Shown: positions 1,861 to 16,170 of the stretch, piece after piece
Numbering within the stretch: the first letter of the stretch is position 1
Layout: each line of letters opens with the position of its first letter
DNA from: Escherichia phage vB_EcoM_ESCO47
Direction: 5' to 3' (one strand)
Length of the DNA: 64,000 nucleotides
Sequence record: OM386662.1
The notes under the pieces: generated by a model
What the model saw: the letters and a program-made list of their open reading frames with translations, nothing else
What the model was told of the DNA's origin: nothing
The model's database searches: none
Translations under genes and position numbers: made by a program

Positions 1861-2577
1861 ATGGGAAAACATAACACAATGAAATATATCAAAGCCGCAG
1901 ATTTTCAAGCCGCATTTAAAGCAGTCAATCGTGAAATTTTAGAAAACCCGGAATTCGTAACTGATTCTCGTATTGGTCGTTGTAATGAAATTGGGTCTAT
2001 GACAGTAGTTGTTGACACTCCATCATCATTCAAAATGACCGACCCACGTATTAACCGCATCTCTTATGAATATGCCGAAGACTTCTGGAAATTTATGATT
2101 TCTGGTGGTACTGATGCAGAAGAAGCATTTAAGGCATATCCTAACGTTGCTAAATTTATTTCTAAACCAAAATCAGATGCTTTGCCTGCGAACTTCAACA
2201 CTTTCTATGGTCCTCGCATTGCGGCCCAATTACCAACTCTTCTAAAAGAACTTAAAGAGAAGCCTAACTCTCGAAGAGTTGTGTTCCAAATTCTAGAAAG
2301 TTCTGATCAGGCTTTGCTTGATTCGGACGAAACACTTGAATATCCATGTACTGACTCGGTGACTTATTATATTCGCGATGGTAAGCTTTATACCCACTGT
2401 CATATGCGTTCTCAGAACTGTGCTGTTGTTATGCAGTTGGATTTTTATCTCCAAGGAAAATTACTTCATTATATCGCTAACGAATGTGGTGTAGAAGTTG
2501 GTGATTATACTCATACCATGGTAAGTGCCCATGTGTTTGAACGTGATTTTGATTATGTTAAAGGATTCCTTGACTAA
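1861..2577 (+). CDS. 42: deoxycytidylate hydroxymethylase-like enzyme (thymidylate synthase fold)
   Basis: NSRR, YPCTDSVTYYIRDGKL (Cys nucleophile) and RSQN motifs align with the TS family; Asp at the position of TS Asn177; sits where T4 has gene 42, upstream of uvsX. Confidence 0.75.
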   Translation: MGKHNTMKYIKAADFQAAFKAVNREILENPEFVTDSRIGRCNEIGSMTVVVDTPSSFKMTDPRINRISYEYAEDFWKFMISGGTDAEEAFKAYPNVAKFISKPKSDALPANFNTFYGPRIAAQLPTLLKELKEKPNSRRVVFQILESSDQALLDSDETLEYPCTDSVTYYIRDGKLYTHCHMRSQNCAVVMQLDFYLQGKLLHYIANECGVEVGDYTHTMVSAHVFERDFDYVKGFLD

Positions 2578-3476
2578 TGGCTATTTTCCGCGTACCTATC
2601 TTGAGTATGCGGTCTTATGAAACCGGACAGTATGCTATCCTTAAGGATGGCAACTTCCAACTTCATTTGCACCGTGCTAATCCAGGTGATGTGATTACAT
2701 ATCCACGTAATGCATCTGATATTAAAGAATGTGAACGTCTTTTCCCAGAATTTAAGTTTGTTCCATTATGGTATAAAGATAACGCGTATAACACTCGTAA
2801 ATATTTCTGGTCTGAAAATGAATTTGTGGTTGATTCATTAATTGCTTATTATGATTGTGATTTTCTAATCACAGATATCACTGGATATGATGGTGTTTTT
2901 GATGTAGAATTCAATTTCAATATCACTGCAGACCCTAATAAACCACGTTTTTATATTGACGAATTCTTAAAAACCGATATGTTGTCGGTTAATCGTTCAC
3001 TTCAAACTACTGTGTTGAATGAACGTCAAAAAGAAGTGCTGGTTAACGCAGGTGCAGATGGTAATAAGATTATCGTAACGCAGAAAGTTATACGTCCTTC
3101 CATCATGCAGCGTCTTGTAGGTGATTTGGCTCCTATTCATCTAGATGGTATTTTTCATCCATTTCGAATTAGTGACCCGTGCTATCGTTTTGAACAAGTG
3201 GTTGAATGTGCAATTCAATTAGGCCAACCACTTTATATAACCGATCCAAATAATAGCTTCGACAGAAATAAGTATCCTGAAGAAGCGCTGATTCGAATTT
3301 TTAAACCAACTAAAACTGAGTACTATCAAATTCTTAAAGGACGTCCGAAGATTCAATATTTCGAAAATCCTGAAGAAGTATTCCATCCAGGTCTTGGTGA
3401 GTTCATCTACTTTAACGCTTTAATTTCTTCGCCGTATAATATACCTAAATATGAAGATGTCGTAATCGAGGAATAA
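2577..3476 (+). CDS. hypothetical protein (299 aa) in the slot T4 uses for beta-glucosyltransferase
   Basis: TAATG stop/start overlap with gene 42; no resemblance to T4 Bgt as I recall it; no motif recognised. Confidence 0.55.
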   Translation: MAIFRVPILSMRSYETGQYAILKDGNFQLHLHRANPGDVITYPRNASDIKECERLFPEFKFVPLWYKDNAYNTRKYFWSENEFVVDSLIAYYDCDFLITDITGYDGVFDVEFNFNITADPNKPRFYIDEFLKTDMLSVNRSLQTTVLNERQKEVLVNAGADGNKIIVTQKVIRPSIMQRLVGDLAPIHLDGIFHPFRISDPCYRFEQVVECAIQLGQPLYITDPNNSFDRNKYPEEALIRIFKPTKTEYYQILKGRPKIQYFENPEEVFHPGLGEFIYFNALISSPYNIPKYEDVVIEE

Positions 3477-3477
3477 A

Positions 3478-4026
3478 ATGGCTAAAATTATTTTAGTAGA
3501 TGGCCCAGATAATGCTGGTAAAACAACTTTCATTAATGACATAATGGAAATTAGTGAAAGATATGTAAAGATTGATTTCCCTAAACGAACTGTAGATGGA
3601 CGCTTTGATGTTAAGTCTCGAAATGAAGTAGGCTGTTTCGAAACAATGCTAAATTATTTAGACCCTACTAAGATTTATCTGTTAGACCGTGGATATATTA
3701 GTAACTGGGTTTACGGACGTATTCGACAAGATGCGGACTCGGTTCTTGACGTTTATGAACAGGATTATGTTCGTCTTTGCCAAAACCATGATGTGTTCAC
3801 AATTATTTTAACACGTAACGAAATGACTGAAAGTTTTGAAGACGACCTTATCACGTTGTCTGCTCATGGCTTTAATTTTGTTATCTCACTTTTTGAAGAG
3901 TTTGCTGCTCATAATGGAATACAATCTTATCAGTTATTAAACCATGATGGTGCTAACAAAGTTATAGGATTTAATGTAAGTGAACGCAATGCATTGATTG
4001 CAGAAATTATCAAATGGGCTCGTTAA
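3478..4026 (+). CDS. P-loop nucleotide/nucleoside kinase (thymidylate-kinase / deoxynucleoside-kinase-like)
   Basis: Walker A ILVDGPDNAGKTT at N-terminus; LLDRGYIS (DR motif) as in Tmk/dNK kinases; 182 aa. Confidence 0.6.
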   Translation: MAKIILVDGPDNAGKTTFINDIMEISERYVKIDFPKRTVDGRFDVKSRNEVGCFETMLNYLDPTKIYLLDRGYISNWVYGRIRQDADSVLDVYEQDYVRLCQNHDVFTIILTRNEMTESFEDDLITLSAHGFNFVISLFEEFAAHNGIQSYQLLNHDGANKVIGFNVSERNALIAEIIKWAR

Positions 4027-5642: not shown

Positions 5643-7085
5643 GTGGTAGAAATTATTTTGTCTCATCTTGTATATGACCAGACTTATTTTTCTAAAGTCT
5701 GGCCGTATATGGATTCTGAGTATTTTGAGCGTGGACCGGCAAAAAATGTCTTTAAAATTATAAAGAACCACGTTAACGAATACAGTGCTATGCCATCTAT
5801 TAACGCATTAAAGGTGGCTTTAGATAATAGTTCTTTAACCGAAAACGAGTATAAAGGAACTTCCGATTTAATCGATAAATTGGTCGATTCTCCTGAAGAC
5901 CCTGATTGGTTGGTTAAAGAAACCGAGAAATATGTCCAGCAAAAAGCAATGTATAATGCTACGTCTAAAATCATTGAGATTCAGACTAATGCTGAACTTC
6001 CACCTGAACAACGTAATAAGAAAATGCCTGACGTAGGAGCTATTCCAGACATTATGCGTCAAGCACTTTCAATCTCATTTGATAGTTATGTCGGTCATGA
6101 CTGGATGGATGACTATGAAGCTCGTTGGTTATCTTATCAGAATAAAGCACGTAAGGTCCCGTTCAAATTAAACATTTTGAATAAAATCACTAAAGGTGGT
6201 GCTGAAACCGGTACACTGAATGTTTTAATGGCTGGTGTTAACGTCGGTAAATCTTTAGGCCTTTGTTCACTTGCTGCAGATTATCTTCAAACAGGTCATA
6301 ATGTTCTTTATATTTCCATGGAAATGGCTGAAGAAGTTTGTGCTAAGCGTATAGATGCAAACATGCTTGACGTATCACTTGATGATATCGATGATGGTAA
6401 TGTATCTTATGCTGAATATAAAGCCAAGATGGAAAAATGGCGTTCAAAATCCACATTAGGACGTTTAGTAGTTAAACAGTATCCTACCGGCGGAGCTAAT
6501 GCTAATACATTCCGTGCATTACTTAACGAATTAAAACTCAAGAAGAACTTCGTTCCTTCTGTAATCATGATTGACTACTTGGGTATTTGTGGGTCTTGTC
6601 GTATCAGAGTTTACACTGAAAATAGCTACACATTAGTTAAAGCTATCGCAGAAGAACTTCGTGCTTTAGCGGTAGAATCTGAAACTGTTCTATGGACTGC
6701 AGCTCAGGTTGGTCGAGCAGCATGGGACGCTTCTGATATGAACATGAGTGATATCGCAGAATCAGCAGGTTTACCGGCGACAGCAGACTTCATGTTAGCA
6801 GTAATTGAGACCGAAGAACTTGCTCAAGCAGAACAGCAGCTCATTAAACAAATCAAATCACGGTATGGTGATAAGAACAAATGGAATAAATTCCTGATGG
6901 GTGTACGTAAAGGCAATCAGAAGTGGGTTGAAATTGAACAAGAAGGTATGAACACCACAAACACGGTAAATGAAAACGCAGGTGCTCAGATGCGTCACGC
7001 GGAAGCGAATCGTACGGAACGCGTAGGAAAAGCTAAAGCGACTAGAGCAGATTTAGACAATCTAGCCAATGAATTAAAATTTTAA
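5643..7085 (+). CDS. 41: replicative DNA helicase gp41 (DnaB-like)
   Basis: 480 aa; Walker A GVNVGKS; DnaB-family architecture; synteny with uvsX/40/61. Confidence 0.95.
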   Translation: MVEIILSHLVYDQTYFSKVWPYMDSEYFERGPAKNVFKIIKNHVNEYSAMPSINALKVALDNSSLTENEYKGTSDLIDKLVDSPEDPDWLVKETEKYVQQKAMYNATSKIIEIQTNAELPPEQRNKKMPDVGAIPDIMRQALSISFDSYVGHDWMDDYEARWLSYQNKARKVPFKLNILNKITKGGAETGTLNVLMAGVNVGKSLGLCSLAADYLQTGHNVLYISMEMAEEVCAKRIDANMLDVSLDDIDDGNVSYAEYKAKMEKWRSKSTLGRLVVKQYPTGGANANTFRALLNELKLKKNFVPSVIMIDYLGICGSCRIRVYTENSYTLVKAIAEELRALAVESETVLWTAAQVGRAAWDASDMNMSDIAESAGLPATADFMLAVIETEELAQAEQQLIKQIKSRYGDKNKWNKFLMGVRKGNQKWVEIEQEGMNTTNTVNENAGAQMRHAEANRTERVGKAKATRADLDNLANELKF

Positions 7086-7091
7086 TAAAAA

Positions 7092-7110
7092 GGAGACTTC
7101 GGTCTCCTTT
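7092..7110 (+). terminator. terminator-like hairpin after gene 41
   Basis: GGAGAC-TTCG-GTCTCC then TTT; short T tract. Confidence 0.4.
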
Positions 7111-7114
7111 CGGG

Positions 7115-7144
7115 GTTTACACCGCTCTTAAATCATGTTACTAT
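7115..7144 (+). promoter_or_regulatory. early promoter-like element
   Basis: -35 GTTTAC 7115-7120, 18-bp spacer, -10 TACTAT 7139-7144, then conserved AGACCTATCAA; ATG at 7171. Confidence 0.5.
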
Positions 7145-7170
7145 AGACCTATCAACTACTGGAGAACAAA

Positions 7171-7488
7171 ATGAAAACTATCGATTGCAAAGCAGAGTTT
7201 AAAGTTTTTTACCATGGCTCAAGCAGTGCAGCAAACATCGAAAACATGCTTTGTCCTCCTGAAGAAACAGGTGTACTGTCTGAAACCGGACGTAAGAAAA
7301 ACCTAAATCGAGTATTCTTTACTGAAGACATTGGTTTAGCAAAGATTTATGCAGGACGAGCAGCACGATCCTATGGAGGTGAACCACGTCTTTATCGAGT
7401 AATCACTCCGGTAGACGTAGTTCAAATGAATGATACTAAAGGTGCTACGGTATATCACGCCGAATGGGCCTTCTGTGAGGAAATATGA
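7171..7488 (+). CDS. hypothetical protein (105 aa)
   Basis: Preceded by an early promoter element; contains FYHGSS motif; function not recognised. Confidence 0.5.
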   Translation: MKTIDCKAEFKVFYHGSSSAANIENMLCPPEETGVLSETGRKKNLNRVFFTEDIGLAKIYAGRAARSYGGEPRLYRVITPVDVVQMNDTKGATVYHAEWAFCEEI

Positions 7489-7673
7489 GCAAATTAACTA
7501 AAGTTACTTTTATCGGTTGGTTTAAAAGCGGTGAGATGTTCACTAAAGATATCATGTTATCAGGTGATCGCGAAGAAATCGAGTGGGTTACGGTACAACT
7601 TGCTGAAGTGAACAACGCATTAGTTAAAGCATTTGTTAATGACGAGAAAGTTTTCGAAGCAGATTTTCGATAA
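7485..7673 (+). CDS. hypothetical protein (62 aa)
   Basis: Stop/start overlap with upstream ORF; no motif recognised. Confidence 0.4.
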   Translation: MSKLTKVTFIGWFKSGEMFTKDIMLSGDREEIEWVTVQLAEVNNALVKAFVNDEKVFEADFR

Positions 7674-7686
7674 TTTTAAAATAACT

Positions 7687-7716
7687 GTTTACAGGCCCCA
7701 CATACTGTGTTACTAT
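7687..7716 (+). promoter_or_regulatory. early promoter-like element
   Basis: -35 GTTTAC 7687-7692, -10 TACTAT 7711-7716, CTATCAA downstream; ATG at 7745. Confidence 0.5.
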
Positions 7717-7744: not shown

Positions 7745-8113
7745 ATGAAAAAATTAATCGCTTTAGCAATGGTATTTGGATTAACCGGATGTGGTGCCCA
7801 TGGCTTTATCCCTAATAACGTCGGCCAATTGATTTACAATCCGAATGTTAAACAGTATGACCAACCTAAAGTTGAAGTGGAAGACCCAGTTACTGTAGGT
7901 AATCGAATGATTCAAGCTGATGCTCATGCTCAACGTTATCGTGATTCTGATACTGTAGCTGTGTCAAAAGAACAGCGCGTTAAAGAACATTGCTTACAGG
8001 CTACTGAAATCGCATTCATTCGCTATGTTGAAACAACTGGTAAAGAGCCTTCCCAGAAACAAATCGCGAATAACTACGTCCAGTGTATTGAACGTTTAAA
8101 CAAATTTAATTAA
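7745..8113 (+). CDS. putative lipoprotein (122 aa)
   Basis: N-terminal signal peptide with lipobox-like LTGC; promoter element upstream. Confidence 0.55.
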   Translation: MKKLIALAMVFGLTGCGAHGFIPNNVGQLIYNPNVKQYDQPKVEVEDPVTVGNRMIQADAHAQRYRDSDTVAVSKEQRVKEHCLQATEIAFIRYVETTGKEPSQKQIANNYVQCIERLNKFN

Positions 8114-8174: not shown

Positions 8175-8423
8175 ATGGAATTATTCGTAGCTAGTTCAGT
8201 AGCAGTTTTAATCGCAGGTATTGGTTCAATCATCATTTACATGTTGCCTTGGGTAATCGCACTTATTCGTGGCACAAAAAGCACAACAGCAATCTTCTTT
8301 GTATCTTTACTCTTTAACTGGACGATGGTTGGTTGGATTGGAACTTTAATTTGGTCTATCGTTGCCAAAAAGAAATCGGCTCAGCAGCCTCAACAAGTAA
8401 TTATTATTCGAGAAAAAGAATAA
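8175..8423 (+). CDS. imm: superinfection-immunity (Imm-family) membrane protein
   Basis: 82 aa, two predicted TM helices; LPWVIALIRG...FNWTMVGWIGTLIW matches the conserved core of the Imm superinfection-immunity family. Confidence 0.6.
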   Translation: MELFVASSVAVLIAGIGSIIIYMLPWVIALIRGTKSTTAIFFVSLLFNWTMVGWIGTLIWSIVAKKKSAQQPQQVIIIREKE

Positions 8424-8427
8424 ACTT

Positions 8428-8462
8428 GTTTACATTATAGATGGACTATAGTATAGTAGTCC
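8428..8462 (+). promoter_or_regulatory. early promoter-like element with inverted repeat around -10
   Basis: -35 GTTTAC 8428-8433, -10 TATAGT 8452-8457 inside GGACTA...TAGTCC repeat 8443-8462; ATG at 8487. Confidence 0.5.
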
Positions 8463-8486: not shown

Positions 8487-8780
8487 ATGAAAAAGTTATC
8501 ATTGGCAGCAATCTTACTTGCAGTATCATGCGCACCGGCTCCAGTTACGGCAGGTTATGATAAAGACCTCTGTGAGTGGTCAATGACTGCAAATCAAGAA
8601 GATGTTGAACAACAAATCTTCTCTGATATCATGAACATCACTAAACGAGACCGTCCTAATATGGTTAATAAAGTTGTTGAACAACTTAAGTCTGGCGGTA
8701 TCATGCAGTACAATTATGTTTTGTATTGTGACCCTAATTTTGATAACAAAGATATCGTAACCGAAATCACAGGTGAATAA
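8487..8780 (+). CDS. sp: spackle-like periplasmic protein (superinfection exclusion)
   Basis: 97 aa with signal peptide; GYDKDLCEWSMTA...QYNYVLYCD resembles T4 Sp as I recall it; adjacent to imm-like gene. Confidence 0.6.
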   Translation: MKKLSLAAILLAVSCAPAPVTAGYDKDLCEWSMTANQEDVEQQIFSDIMNITKRDRPNMVNKVVEQLKSGGIMQYNYVLYCDPNFDNKDIVTEITGE

Positions 8781-8781
8781 T

Positions 8782-9432
8782 ATGATTTATTATATGCACA
8801 AAAATGCGCCATTTAAATATGGTAAATTTCCTAATGCACAATGTTATAATATAACGCCGAATGAAAATAATAACGGATATCATCTCGGTGTAATTTTTGT
8901 AATTGTTAAAGATAACGAAATCGTCGCCTGGGCGGATTTTAAAGGTACAACATATGATGTTAATCCTGTGCCTTTCACATATTACAATATAACGGATTTG
9001 GCATATGATTATAATTGGTTTAATCATGACACGTTGGCTCATATTGAAGGTGTAGGATTTGACATCTCTTATTCTAGCTATTCATTATGTCCTATGAGCC
9101 GAGCTCACGGTAAAGATGCATCATATCTTTCAATTCGTAAACGTGTAAACTTCAAACGTAGTACAGATTATGTTGGTGGTCTCTTTGTTAAAGATAATAA
9201 AATAACCCGTATTAGTTATCCTTTAAGTGTAGGTCAAAAAGATGTTGATGTTGATTTAGACTTAACTGAAAATAACATTAATCGTATTGCTTCTGTATAT
9301 TTTGATATCGATGAAAAAATTGTAGTGTGTGGATACGAATTACCACCTGAAGAAAAGGCTGAAGCAATTGAAGTCGAATTAGAAATTTCTGTTGATGACC
9401 AAATATTTAATGCATTTATGAATCGAGGTTAA
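8782..9432 (+). CDS. hypothetical protein (216 aa)
   Basis: Listed ORF begins at GTG 8773; first ATG at 8782 follows GGTGA; no motif recognised. Confidence 0.5.
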   Translation: MIYYMHKNAPFKYGKFPNAQCYNITPNENNNGYHLGVIFVIVKDNEIVAWADFKGTTYDVNPVPFTYYNITDLAYDYNWFNHDTLAHIEGVGFDISYSSYSLCPMSRAHGKDASYLSIRKRVNFKRSTDYVGGLFVKDNKITRISYPLSVGQKDVDVDLDLTENNINRIASVYFDIDEKIVVCGYELPPEEKAEAIEVELEISVDDQIFNAFMNRG

Positions 9433-13309: not shown

Positions 13310-13455
13310 CGTGTACCAAAGAAGCTGAAGCCAGAGCAAAGGAAGCTTTAGATTTGCTTCTCAAAATCGGTAGTAAAATGATGGAAGAGAACGAAAAATA
13401 CATCCAAGAAAATAAAACTCCGGATGGTCCATTAGTTGGTAAGAGGAAATCATAA
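13306..13455 (+). CDS. hypothetical small protein (49 aa)
   Basis: ATGA overlap with upstream ORF and ends exactly at the next ATG; below the ORF-track cutoff. Confidence 0.3.
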
Positions 13456-13853
13456 TGAAAGCTAATTTATACCACATACATATCGACGGTCAAAAATTCC
13501 CTATTGAAGTATTGATCCCTAGTGAGTGGTCAGCGTATAACACTGAAATGTACCGGCGCATTGAAGAACAGTTTTTAACGAGTATTTCTCCTAAAGGTTA
13601 CGAAGTAGAAATCCGACTGGCCGGTGAATTCCACTATGACCCATCTTCGCCATTTGACGTAAGTGAAATCATCATTAATAAAGGATTCGTTAGTCCTGGC
13701 AATAGTTCGTCTCTTTATGGTTACATAAACGATATCATTATCTGCGGAAATAAATTCAGTATATTCCATGAAGAAGACTTGAGAGAGTTCAAAAAGTTGG
13801 TATGGAACTACTTCGGTGAAACCGGGTTTAATTTTATTAAGGCGCCTAAATGA
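13455..13853 (+). CDS. hypothetical protein (132 aa), paralog of next gene
   Basis: Shares SSPFDVSEIIINKGFVSPGN-type block with the downstream ORF. Confidence 0.5.
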   Translation: MKANLYHIHIDGQKFPIEVLIPSEWSAYNTEMYRRIEEQFLTSISPKGYEVEIRLAGEFHYDPSSPFDVSEIIINKGFVSPGNSSSLYGYINDIIICGNKFSIFHEEDLREFKKLVWNYFGETGFNFIKAPK

Positions 13854-14332
13854 TGGCTAAAATACTCGAATTAGAATTTTATATTCGTGATAACCGTGGC
13901 CAAACTCGTCCTTATGATGACACAGTTTGCGTTATCTTAGTACCATCTGACACTAGTAACAGTTCATCTGAAAGCCTCGAAAAGGCTATTAATAGTATGG
14001 CTCTTCCTGAAAACGTTATGCTTAAAATAAAGCATAATAAAAATGTTGAGATGCAACCAGGTAGCCCATTTACAGTAGTAGAAGCATTGCTGATTAAAGG
14101 TTATAGTTATCCTAACAACAGATCAGAAGGCGAGAACTCTAAAGAAATTTTCTTTACAACTCCTGATAAAGACTGTCTCGAAGGACGAAGCTATCTTGTA
14201 GGAAGCACTTCTGACGTACTCGAAATCCAACGTCAGATCTGGACGCATTTTGATATCGGACTTCGCTTTACGTTAACAGAGTCAGCCCTTCTAGAACAAT
14301 CTCTTCGTCGACGCATGTACGGTGGTTTCTAA
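13850..14332 (+). CDS. hypothetical protein (160 aa), paralog of previous gene
   Basis: GSPFTVVEALLIKGYSYPNN block similar to the upstream ORF; ATGA overlap. Confidence 0.5.
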   Translation: MMAKILELEFYIRDNRGQTRPYDDTVCVILVPSDTSNSSSESLEKAINSMALPENVMLKIKHNKNVEMQPGSPFTVVEALLIKGYSYPNNRSEGENSKEIFFTTPDKDCLEGRSYLVGSTSDVLEIQRQIWTHFDIGLRFTLTESALLEQSLRRRMYGGF

Positions 14333-14654: not shown

Positions 14655-15266
14655 ATGTTTTTACCTTATAATGAATGTGAAATTGAAGAAATGGTTCGCC
14701 GAGCACAAGACCCTGTGTTCCAAGAAGACCTGCAATACAAAATTGATGAAGTGTTCAGTGATTCTGAGCAGAGCACTCTTTGGCAGTGCATGGAAAATAA
14801 ACCGGATTGCATTCAACAAGAGTTGGATTCAATCATTCGTAAAAATTGGTCATCTTCTGTGCCAACGGTCCTTTATCGTGGAATTTCTAAGAAAACTCTA
14901 AAAATGTTAGATTCTGTAGGATGTGTAGGAGCTACTATCAAGTTTGACCGAGTAATGAGCTTTAGTTCAGTATTTGGTGTAGCACGTAATTTTGCTTCAC
15001 ACAATTTTTATGGAACTAAACAAATATTCTGTGTTAAGAATGCTCCATTCGCTTTTAACTTCAGAGAAACAATGCTTGACATGATTTTGGCTGCGCCATC
15101 TTGCGAGTTCAGCGGAGCTTTCCCTGAAGCGACTAGACGGTCTAATGTTCGTTTAGTATCTGATGAGTGTGAATTTATGTTCCCGATCGGGACTACACTA
15201 CGTGTAGATTCTGTTACTGAAGAAGGAACTTATCGGATATGGAATCTGTCTATTATCGGTTACTGA
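14655..15266 (+). CDS. ADP-ribosyltransferase (ModA/ModB-like)
   Basis: R-S-ExE triad: YRG, FSS and ECEF motifs in correct order; position matches the T4 modA/modB locus between 56 and dda. Confidence 0.7.
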   Translation: MFLPYNECEIEEMVRRAQDPVFQEDLQYKIDEVFSDSEQSTLWQCMENKPDCIQQELDSIIRKNWSSSVPTVLYRGISKKTLKMLDSVGCVGATIKFDRVMSFSSVFGVARNFASHNFYGTKQIFCVKNAPFAFNFRETMLDMILAAPSCEFSGAFPEATRRSNVRLVSDECEFMFPIGTTLRVDSVTEEGTYRIWNLSIIGY

Positions 15267-15417: not shown

Positions 15418-16170
15418 ATGAAATTATCAAACATCCAAATCAAGAAAATCGAACGTCGTTTAGATCACACCAGAGCTTCTGCAAAGAGGCGCTCTAAGGA
15501 TTTTAACTTAGACTTTAATTACCTTAAAAACATTCTTGATCAAAAGGTCTGCGCTTACTCAGGTGAAACCTTTGATAACAAGGTTGAAGGTGAGAAATTA
15601 TCCTTAGAACGTTTTAATAACGATATCGGTTACATTAAAGGTAACGTTATTCCTGTCAAGAAAAAATATAACGCAGCACGTTCAGATTTTACTTTAGCCG
15701 AACTCATCGAGAAACGTGAAATAATCGCTGGACGTATCGCTACTCCTAGCGCAAAGAAAGTTGAAAAGCTTAATCTCGATGAAAAGAAATGGGCTGAAAT
15801 CAAACACACTTATACACAAATTAAAAATATCCAAAACAAACGTAAGAGCCGTATCGATCATATTGAAAAAATGACTAAAGGTAAAAGCACCTTATCTAAA
15901 GAAGACCAATTAAAAGTTGTCGGATTAAAAGCCCGCATCGATGGTTCCAGAGTTGCCGAAGGACGTGAAGTAACAAAGTTAAATGTTCTTCTTAAAGGTT
16001 CTGATTGGAAAACTAAAACCAAGTTATCCGACGCAGAAACGCTTTTTGATACATATGATAAAGTTATCCAAGGATTACAACGTTTCGAAAAGATTGGTTT
16101 CATCGGTAAATTAAAATTGAAACGTGGTTTACCACTTAACACTTCTATCTTTAAATTGATTAAAGGTTGA
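15418..16170 (+). CDS. hypothetical protein (250 aa), Srd-like by position
   Basis: Lys-rich; lies between the mod-like gene and dda where T4 has srd; no diagnostic motif. Confidence 0.4.
   Translation: MKLSNIQIKKIERRLDHTRASAKRRSKDFNLDFNYLKNILDQKVCAYSGETFDNKVEGEKLSLERFNNDIGYIKGNVIPVKKKYNAARSDFTLAELIEKREIIAGRIATPSAKKVEKLNLDEKKWAEIKHTYTQIKNIQNKRKSRIDHIEKMTKGKSTLSKEDQLKVVGLKARIDGSRVAEGREVTKLNVLLKGSDWKTKTKLSDAETLFDTYDKVIQGLQRFEKIGFIGKLKLKRGLPLNTSIFKLIKG

Follow-up and report, generated by a model that had tools for sequence, protein, structure and literature searches.

In the account of viral ADP-ribosyltransferases (ARTs) given by Iyer, Burroughs, Anantharaman and Aravind (Viruses 14:1977; PMC9503650), the p0068-like ARTs of the H-Y-[EDQ] clade are counted among the commonest viral ARTs, and in phages of Escherichia, Shigella and Salmonella a p0068 ART gene is described as being followed by dmd, a pair for which the authors propose a toxin with Dmd as its antitoxin (Iyer et al., 2022). 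Here we describe a gene of this family in Escherichia phage vB_EcoM_ESCO47 (sequence record OM386662.1), located at positions 7171..7488 of a stretch of 64,000 nucleotides, the window, and encoding a protein of 105 residues. The window is a segment of a T4-like, Mosigvirus-like coliphage genome; over 3.9 kb it shares ~95% identity with Escherichia phages AV109 and phiE142 and with Shigella phage JK42. The protein is 70% identical to p0068 of Acinetobacter phage ZZ1 (P0065) over 93% of the query (E 3.6e-39) and is a member of the p0068-like family, with no sequence difference that sets it apart. We infer that the name p0068 denotes this ZZ1 protein, from the name itself and from the published account of the Dmd-linked coliphage genes. 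Both the ART-fold assignment and the ART-dmd gene pair are already published predictions, and because the fold assignment is in print, the identification made here is the correct call of a predicted family and not a discovery. The family is placed here closest to Arr, a relation that is not mentioned in the parts of the published account drawn on here (Iyer et al., 2022). We consider it reasonably likely that the 105-residue protein is an early, stand-alone and minimal Arr-like mono-ADP-ribosyltransferase that acts on a host or defence target.

A sequence-only reading of the window had noted this open reading frame (ORF) and its FYHGSSS motif, and both are real: the frame runs from ATG to TGA over 105 codons, is preceded by a ribosome-binding site and a promoter-like site, and has conserved homologues. 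The product of 105 residues starts MKTIDCKAEFKVFYHGSSSAANIE... (= MKTIDCKAEFKVFYHGSSS...), with FKVFYHGSSS at residues 10-19 and H-G-S at residues 15-17 (nucleotides 7213..7221). Conservation was judged from a shallow close-family profile (A1), a set of 39 diverse homologues (A2) and a set of 44 further multidomain homologues (A3). The gene and the parts of it that matter for the argument are as follows.

7116..7144, + strand: promoter-like TTTACA-N17-TACTAT with TG before the -10 hexamer, from a promoter scan of the sequence
7161..7164, + strand: ribosome-binding site GGAG, 6 nt 5′ of the ATG, read from the sequence
7171..7488, + strand: coding sequence, 105 codons from ATG to TGA, of the minimal Arr-like (p0068-family) ART-fold protein
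7213..7221, + strand: codons of H15-G16-S17 in strand 1, the putative NAD-binding His motif, aligned with H19-G-T of Arr-ms
7279..7293, + strand: codons of S37-E38-T39-G40-R41 in the loop that joins strand 1 to strand 2, of which E38 and R41 are conserved family-wide and are aligned by HMMER with E40 and R43 of Arr-ms
7315..7323, + strand: codons of F49-F50-T51 in strand 2, with F49 at the position of Arr-ms Y49 and T51 at that of Arr-ms T51
7348..7350, + strand: codon of Y60 in the helix after strand 2, conserved in >=90% of A2 and invariant in A3
7477..7479, + strand: codon of E103 in the last strand, invariant in the T4-like subfamily and not in the wider family

The evidence for the fold comes from structure prediction and from profile comparison. 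Two AlphaFold2 (AF2) models, built from 27- and 39-sequence alignments, have a predicted local distance difference test score (pLDDT) of 85.3 and 85.9 and a predicted template-modelling score of 0.77, and both contain the same six strands (residues 13-18, 48-51, 72-81, 84-87, 94-97 and 99-104) and one long helix (54-68). The models thus predict the split beta-sheet core of the ART superfamily, with about six strands and a helix after strand 2. When AF2 models were compared with the PDB by Foldseek, Arr ranked first (9iaf and 2hw2; probability 1.00, template-modelling score (TM) 0.59-0.65). The next matches of the second model were KptA/Tpt1, ParT, Arr-2, RES toxin and pertussis toxin S1, while for the first model ParT and the Plt/typhoid toxins were among weak unrelated matches. 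In BFVD, a 94-residue phage protein named 'Rifampin ADP-ribosyl transferase' also matched (E 4.6e-8, TM 0.72).

Sequence profiles lead to the same family. The only Pfam match of the protein by itself is Arr-ms (PF12120), at 13.5 bits (E 0.086) and over model positions 1-59 of 99. With the A2 profile, a search of the PDB finds Arr-ms (E 0.001) and Arr-2 (E 0.013), and hhalign aligns A2 with Arr-2 at a probability of 94.7% (E 5.9e-8) over 75 columns, covering Arr-2 residues 13-89 of 150; with the shallow A1 profile hhalign is weak (47%). The A2-Arr alignment pairs H15 with H19, F49 with Y49, T51 with T51, E38 with E40 and R41 with R43. The Pfam cut-off for Arr-ms (25 bits) is passed by homologues recovered with the family profile at E <= 1e-22, several of them at 27-30 bits (P0133 at 29.7 bits and P0149 at 29.4), and Arr-ms matches are found in 14 of the 39 A2 homologues and, at E <= 1e-3, in 31 of the 44 multidomain homologues (best 1.8e-9). 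Because the window protein falls below the threshold while its homologues pass it, it is best described as belonging to a related family and not as an orthologue of Arr. A predicted ART fold, homologous to the N-terminal two-thirds of Arr and with a core of ~93 residues, is supported by the models and profiles together. The sequence-only reading had put forward the resemblance to the H-G-S/T motif of ART-fold enzymes as a weak guess, to be checked by structure prediction; the models gave ART-fold matches with Arr at the top, and the profile searches, hhalign and the Arr-ms-positive homologues uphold the guess.

By itself the tripeptide means little, and its conservation is what counts: H-G-[ST] occurs 3 times in the 19,305 residues of the long ORFs of the window, or ~0.016 per 105 residues. 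All A2 homologues have H15 and G16, with either Ser or Thr at position 17; among the A3 homologues, the equivalent His and Gly are likewise invariant, followed by Thr in >=90%. Residues conserved across the family are H15, G16, [ST]17, P29, E38, R41, F49, T51, A57, Y60, A61, G69, G70 and P80, and the T4-like subgroup additionally conserves S37, K43, N44, D53, R63, G91, F101 and E103. The aromatic residue of the ART superfamily with a second Tyr about 10 residues on is found here with Phe (F49) in place of the strand-2 Tyr. The F49-X10-Y60 spacing recalls what we take to be the Y-X10-Y arrangement of diphtheria-toxin-type ARTs. E38 is the sole acidic residue conserved family-wide and R41 is nearly invariant; residues of the SETGR loop may have a catalytic role. 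Where the sequence-only reading had found no other catalytic elements evident, F49 and T51 in strand 2 and Y60 in the following helix can now be named; a canonical strand-5 acid still cannot be picked out.

In the mechanism that we propose, the ART gene would have a promoter of its own, from which it and dmd would both be transcribed early. NAD+ would be held in a pocket formed by H15-G16-S17 in strand 1, F49 and T51 in strand 2, and Y60 in the helix that follows. Nicotinamide would be released, and the ADP-ribose would be moved to a target in the host or in a defence system at the start of infection. The protein would then serve as an effector of host takeover or counter-defence, encoded by a solo gene and not by an obligate partner of dmd. 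The promoter-like site at 7116..7144 resembles the T4 early-promoter type and is presumably an early promoter.

Several observations weigh against this proposal. Family-wide, the canonical position in strand 5 has no conserved acid: T, S or E may stand at position 93, D88 is variable, and the invariance of E103 is confined to the T4-like subgroup. E38, the residue that is conserved family-wide, lies in the S-E-x-G-R-K-K-N loop that joins strand 1 to strand 2, where the models are least certain (mean pLDDT 57-84 per 10-residue block). The window protein scores below the gathering cut-off of Arr-ms (13.5 vs 25 bits), direct sequence search of the PDB gave no match with either the protein alone or the A1 profile, and the Foldseek E-values are modest, at about 1e-2. 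No activity, target or phenotype for the family is reported in the literature searched. Finally, the phage already has a Mod-like ART, so the role of the 105-residue protein may be redundant or specialised.

Comparison with the nearest solved structures bears on the target, for which proteins, nucleic-acid ends and small molecules all come into consideration. Arr (PF12120; PDB 2HW2, 9IAF, 9IBA) is the best structural match, and both proteins are unusually small ARTs. Arr has 140-150 residues compared with 105 here; the likeness runs from strand 1 to strand 3, and the last ~40 residues of Arr, its C-terminal third, have no counterpart. The C-terminal region of Arr contributes to rifampin binding. 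The strand-2 Tyr of Arr is Phe in the window protein, and no conserved acid is aligned opposite Arr D84, which we take to be of catalytic significance; by counting from the A2-Arr alignments, the column opposite D84 is C/Q85 or M/L86. The family also has its own S-E-x-G-R-K-K-N loop and R63, neither of which is present in Arr, and Arr is a resistance cassette, whereas the window gene is a putative early gene of a phage. A rifamycin target is unlikely, since the C-terminal third of Arr is missing, the match to Arr is partial and the G-R41-K-K-N loop is the family's own.

A second comparison is with the RNA 2′-phosphotransferase KptA/Tpt1, the third-best Foldseek match of the second model (9ldi, probability 0.98, E 1.6e-2). 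The TM is only 0.43, there is no match at the sequence level, and strand 1 reads Y-H-G in the window protein. The Tpt1 catalytic set is one His and several Arg, and this set is not evident in the window protein. One ART homologue is fused to a 2H phosphoesterase, which recalls the pathway of Tpt1 and a cyclic phosphodiesterase. The structural likeness to KptA/Tpt1 and the conserved basic loop G-R41-K-K-N make a phosphate-bearing, nucleic-acid-type target plausible. It is possible, though on balance improbable, that the ~93-residue domain, smaller than Arr, is fully active with a non-canonical set of residues (strand-1 His, strand-2 Phe and Thr, helix Tyr, and loop E38 and R41 in place of the strand-5 acid) and acts on a non-protein target, which in the same joint proposal would be the terminal phosphate or hydroxyl of RNA or DNA, or a small-molecule immune signal. 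If true, the family would represent early counter-defence effectors of phages with a new class of chemistry, working alone in T4-like phages and built as a module into polyvalent proteins that are injected.

Alt, ModA and ModB of T4 are likewise phage ARTs, used for host takeover as infection begins or shortly afterwards. They are members of the R-S-E clade, ~200-680 residues in length, while the window protein carries a strand-1 His and is unrelated to them in sequence; in place of the R-S-E traits (strand-1 Arg, strand-2 S-T-S and strand-5 E-x-E) it has strand-1 His and no E-x-E. Since a Mod-like ART is encoded in the window, the p0068-family protein is an additional ART, giving at least 2 unrelated ARTs within 8 kb.

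14655..15266, + strand: Mod-like ADP-ribosyltransferase, matching PHROG 832 (annotated as RNA polymerase ADP-ribosylase) with E 3e-39

ADP-ribosylation is central to the conflict between phages and bacteria, with Alt, ModA and ModB on the phage side and DarT, CmdT and the NAD-depleting systems on the host side. The p0068-like family is abundant, very small and atypical in its catalytic residues; it is among the commonest viral ARTs, and hundreds of T4-like phages of the therapeutic type, infecting E. coli, Klebsiella, Acinetobacter and Aeromonas, carry it. Almost all genome records and PHROGs label it 'hypothetical' or of unknown function. Once a target were found, T-even phages would have a fourth ART in their toolkit, a minimal catalytic ART core would be defined, and the question of a second, phage-internal partner of Dmd would be settled.

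Domain contexts also point to an effector role. An exhaustive hidden Markov model search with the close-family profile returned 231 cluster representatives, many of which are domains in proteins of up to 3,924 residues. The domain is found in a portal-protein fusion with a 2H/Acb1-like phosphoesterase, in a giant protein with PhageMin_Tail (minor tail), and in giant polyvalent proteins with ART-PolyVal, NUDIX, GNAT, Toprim and DUF7178. Polyvalent proteins are viewed as effectors injected along with the DNA (framework of Iyer et al., 2017; PMC5512222). ART-PolyVal (PF18760, Tox-ART-HYD2 clade) is found in giant proteins that also contain p0068/Arr-like domains and would share with them the logic of a host-delivered effector; in Pfam it is a family of its own, which the window protein does not match. 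The presence of two unrelated ART families in one polypeptide suggests two different targets. On PLSDB plasmids, a tblastn search with the polyvalent-type domain found no match, so that carriage on conjugative plasmids is unsupported.

Individual examples of the domain as a module in giant phage proteins are P0135 (3735 aa), P0136, P0144 (1955 aa), P0147 (3924 aa) and P0165 (954 aa). A stand-alone homologue of 117 residues (P0279) lies on a 110-kb metagenomic phage contig (L005, 3980..6354); a NADAR gene is found ~1.6 kb upstream of it, and an Acb2/Tad1-hairpin gene and an RNA ligase gene are nearby. This stretch looks like an island of counter-defence genes directed at NAD/ADP-ribose and cyclic nucleotides.

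Among the alternatives, the one that survives best is that the ART fold is catalytically dead and that the protein only binds NAD+, ADP-ribose or a signal derived from ADP-ribose, or else is a decoy for DarT or another ART toxin of the host. We regard this as rather unlikely. It would account for the lack of a conserved canonical catalytic acid and for the very small size of the protein, and it would fit a location near genes for binding-type inhibitors, namely Dmd and AdfA in the window and the Acb2/Tad1-like sponge on contig L005. However, the residues that are conserved (H-G-[ST], aromatic-x-T and Tyr) are those that ARTs use for positioning of NAD+ and for catalysis, and in polyvalent proteins the domain is fused to other enzymes. 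Arr, moreover, works without a strand-5 Glu, which also counts against a dead fold.

The next alternative, the published one, is that the two proteins form a type II toxin-antitoxin pair, in which Dmd is the antitoxin dedicated to the ART toxin (Iyer et al., 2022; PMC9503650). How well it survives depends on how the two genes are distributed, and the two features of the window on which it bears are the following.

7485..7673, + strand: dmd, 62 aa, antitoxin-like inhibitor of the host toxins RnlA and LsoA (Pfam Dmd 3.1e-20; PHROG 2102 4.9e-33)
7485..7488, + strand: ATGA, in which the stop TGA of the ART gene overlaps the ATG of dmd, read from the sequence

The ART gene is a real gene under purifying selection. 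A tblastn search found homologues in 609 phage records, mostly full length and at 60-99% identity, and the phages that carry them include those of Escherichia, Klebsiella, Acinetobacter, Aeromonas, Enterobacter, Cronobacter and Vibrio. The ratio of nonsynonymous to synonymous substitution rates (dN/dS) is 0.10 against the orthologue of a Yersinia phage; for more distant orthologues dS is saturated, yet 64-71% of residues are kept. The protein matches PHROG 2110 end to end (6e-60), a group annotated as of unknown function, whereas NCBIfam and PADLOC gave no match for the 105-residue protein. In GenBank, the name 'putative ADP-ribosyl transferase' has already been given to the orthologue in some records of phages of Acinetobacter, Cronobacter, Pantoea and Vibrio. 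Stand-alone homologues of 143-148 residues were also seen on chromosomal contigs of Patescibacteria (candidate phyla radiation; L013, 5001..5447, and L015, 5001..5432). A partner or antitoxin was sought beside these copies and none is evident; they have no conserved neighbour, and one adjoins a transposase.

Within the window, the arrangement speaks for a toxin-antitoxin pair, as the ART stop overlaps the dmd start and one promoter stands before both. From the ATGA overlap at 7485..7488 it follows that the two genes are co-transcribed and probably translationally coupled. Where Dmd is near the ART at all it lies directly downstream, as in 10 IMG/VR loci and in many coliphage records, and the proposal has the weight of publication (Iyer et al., 2022). 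Across the wider family the pairing is not general. With an iterative search (jackhmmer), Dmd was found within 3 kb in 10 of 66 distinct IMG/VR ART loci, all 10 with ARTs >=87% identical to the window protein, while the other 56 had no Dmd within that distance, relatives of 83-88% identity among them. None of 11 further loci had Dmd, and loci of Klebsiella, Acinetobacter, Aeromonas, Vibrio, Cronobacter and Yersinia phages are without it; conversely, T4 has dmd without the ART.

The host ranges point the same way, in that the hosts of the ART records and of the Dmd records overlap only in part. Dmd is present in 800 phage records, and almost all of these phages have Escherichia, Shigella, Yersinia or Salmonella as host; 567 of the 800 fall below 60% identity to the Dmd of the window, the band in which T4 lies together with its near kin. 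For at least half of the ART records, the host is one that does not occur among the Dmd records (Klebsiella 116, Acinetobacter 68, Aeromonas 62, Enterobacter 29, Cronobacter 14, Vibrio 14). Clustering of the neighbouring ORFs gave no partner family in more than 29% of the 66 loci, and the commonest real neighbours (gene 41, uvsX, gene 40 and gene 61) mark map position only. ATGA overlaps are common in the tightly packed early units of T4, which also speaks against reading this one as the mark of a toxin-antitoxin pair. Dmd, in addition, has an established and separate role against the host toxins RnlA and LsoA (PMC9503650; HIDEN-SEQ preprint). Because Dmd accompanies a minority of the ART loci and no common partner takes its place, the ART is better seen as a solo gene, and its link to dmd as a lineage-specific adjacency. 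We have lowered our estimate for the toxin-antitoxin pair accordingly and now consider it unlikely, although for coliphages it keeps some probability.

Small ORFs beside the ART were considered as hidden analogues of Dmd in Klebsiella phage Miro and Aeromonas phage phiAS4 and were rejected: they had no Pfam match. In Miro, the ORF in question overlaps the stop of the ART gene and encodes a hydrophobic peptide of 58 residues, possibly a membrane peptide, for which BLASTP found no similarity to Dmd.

It is very improbable that the protein is a true Arr, which would inactivate rifamycin-type antibiotics and so shield the host RNA polymerase on which the phage depends. Arr is both the closest solved structure and the closest Pfam family. 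Nevertheless, alignment is confined to positions 1-59 of the 99 in the Pfam model and to residues 13-89 of the 150 in Arr-2, the protein is ~40 residues shorter at its end and scores 13.5 bits against a cut-off of 25, and the G-R-K-K-N loop and R63 of the family are not those of Arr. In addition, the rifampin ARTs of Microbacterium, Gordonia and Sinorhizobium phages are treated as a group apart from the p0068-like ARTs in the account of Iyer et al. (2022; PMC9503650). Lastly, a chance H-G-S in a small non-ART protein is scarcely credible, for although such a tripeptide is expected ~0.016 times per protein of this size and the protein's own Pfam match is not significant, the fold, the profiles and the conservation all contradict it.

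We return to the preferred reading, an early solo effector, with the genes among which it lies. The features around the ART and dmd genes, and one further gene close to the Mod-like ART, are listed below.

5643..7085, + strand: gene 41 (helicase), the direct 5′ neighbour of the ART gene
7089..7110, + strand: stem-loop AAAGGAGAC-TTCG-GTCTCCTTT just past the gene 41 stop, read from the sequence
7745..8113, + strand: DUF5481 lipoprotein gene (Pfam)
8175..8423, + strand: imm (superinfection immunity), between the DUF5481 lipoprotein gene and sp (Pfam)
8487..8780, + strand: sp (spackle) (Pfam)
8773..9432, + strand: adfA (anti-DarT factor A), orthologue of T4 gp61.2 (Pfam PF23813, E 3e-118)
15418..16170, + strand: Srd anti-sigma factor (PHROG 1400)

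Downstream of the ART, the gene order is dmd, the DUF5481 lipoprotein gene, imm, sp, adfA, two small ORFs and the primase gene 61. In T4 the order is 41, dmd, 61.4 and sp, with no ART between 41 and dmd and no imm in this stretch. As T4 lacks an ART between 41 and dmd, the ART is an extra gene of the variable early region between genes 41 and 61. This region holds several anti-defence and exclusion genes here, namely dmd, imm, sp and adfA. The two exclusion genes imm and sp are adjacent, unlike in T4.

The AdfA of the window reads NNINRIAS where that of T4 reads NIINHIAS, which puts an Arg at position 164 if the start is the Met of MHKN. The RB69-type allele of AdfA, which is the type of the window, is reported to be unable to neutralise DarT1 (PMC11825919).

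The hairpin after gene 41 has a core of GGAGAC-TTCG-GTCTCC, with three flanking A-T pairs that extend the stem to 7089..7110. It was unscored in the terminator scan, and its T run is only 3 long. Judged by its place and sequence, it is probably an element for transcript ending or stability that divides gene 41 from the next early unit. The promoter-like motif found before the ART recurs in near-identical form, TTTACA-N17-TA(C/T)(T/A)(A/G)T, at 7116..7144, 7688..7716 and 8429..8457 (all + strand), and the three copies precede three successive small transcription units. The second and third copies sit before the genes at 7745 and 8487; TG stands before the -10 hexamer in the first two only, and the copy at 8429..8457 reads TATAGT without TG. 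The three copies suggest a series of independent early promoters.

Two other stretches of the window hold minor points of interest. Two tandem paralogues of the T4 MRH-like type (PF24070) lie at 13455..13853 and 13850..14332 (+ strand), with overlapping stop and start. Between a thymidylate-synthase-family gene and uvsX, at 1861..4026 (+ strand), are genes for a 299-residue protein of PHROG 3891 (function not annotated) and for a 182-residue thymidylate kinase-like P-loop protein (PHROG 761). By its position, the thymidylate-synthase-family gene is probably gene 42, for dCMP hydroxymethylase. In T4, the interval between gene 42 and uvsX is presumably occupied by the gene for beta-glucosyltransferase.

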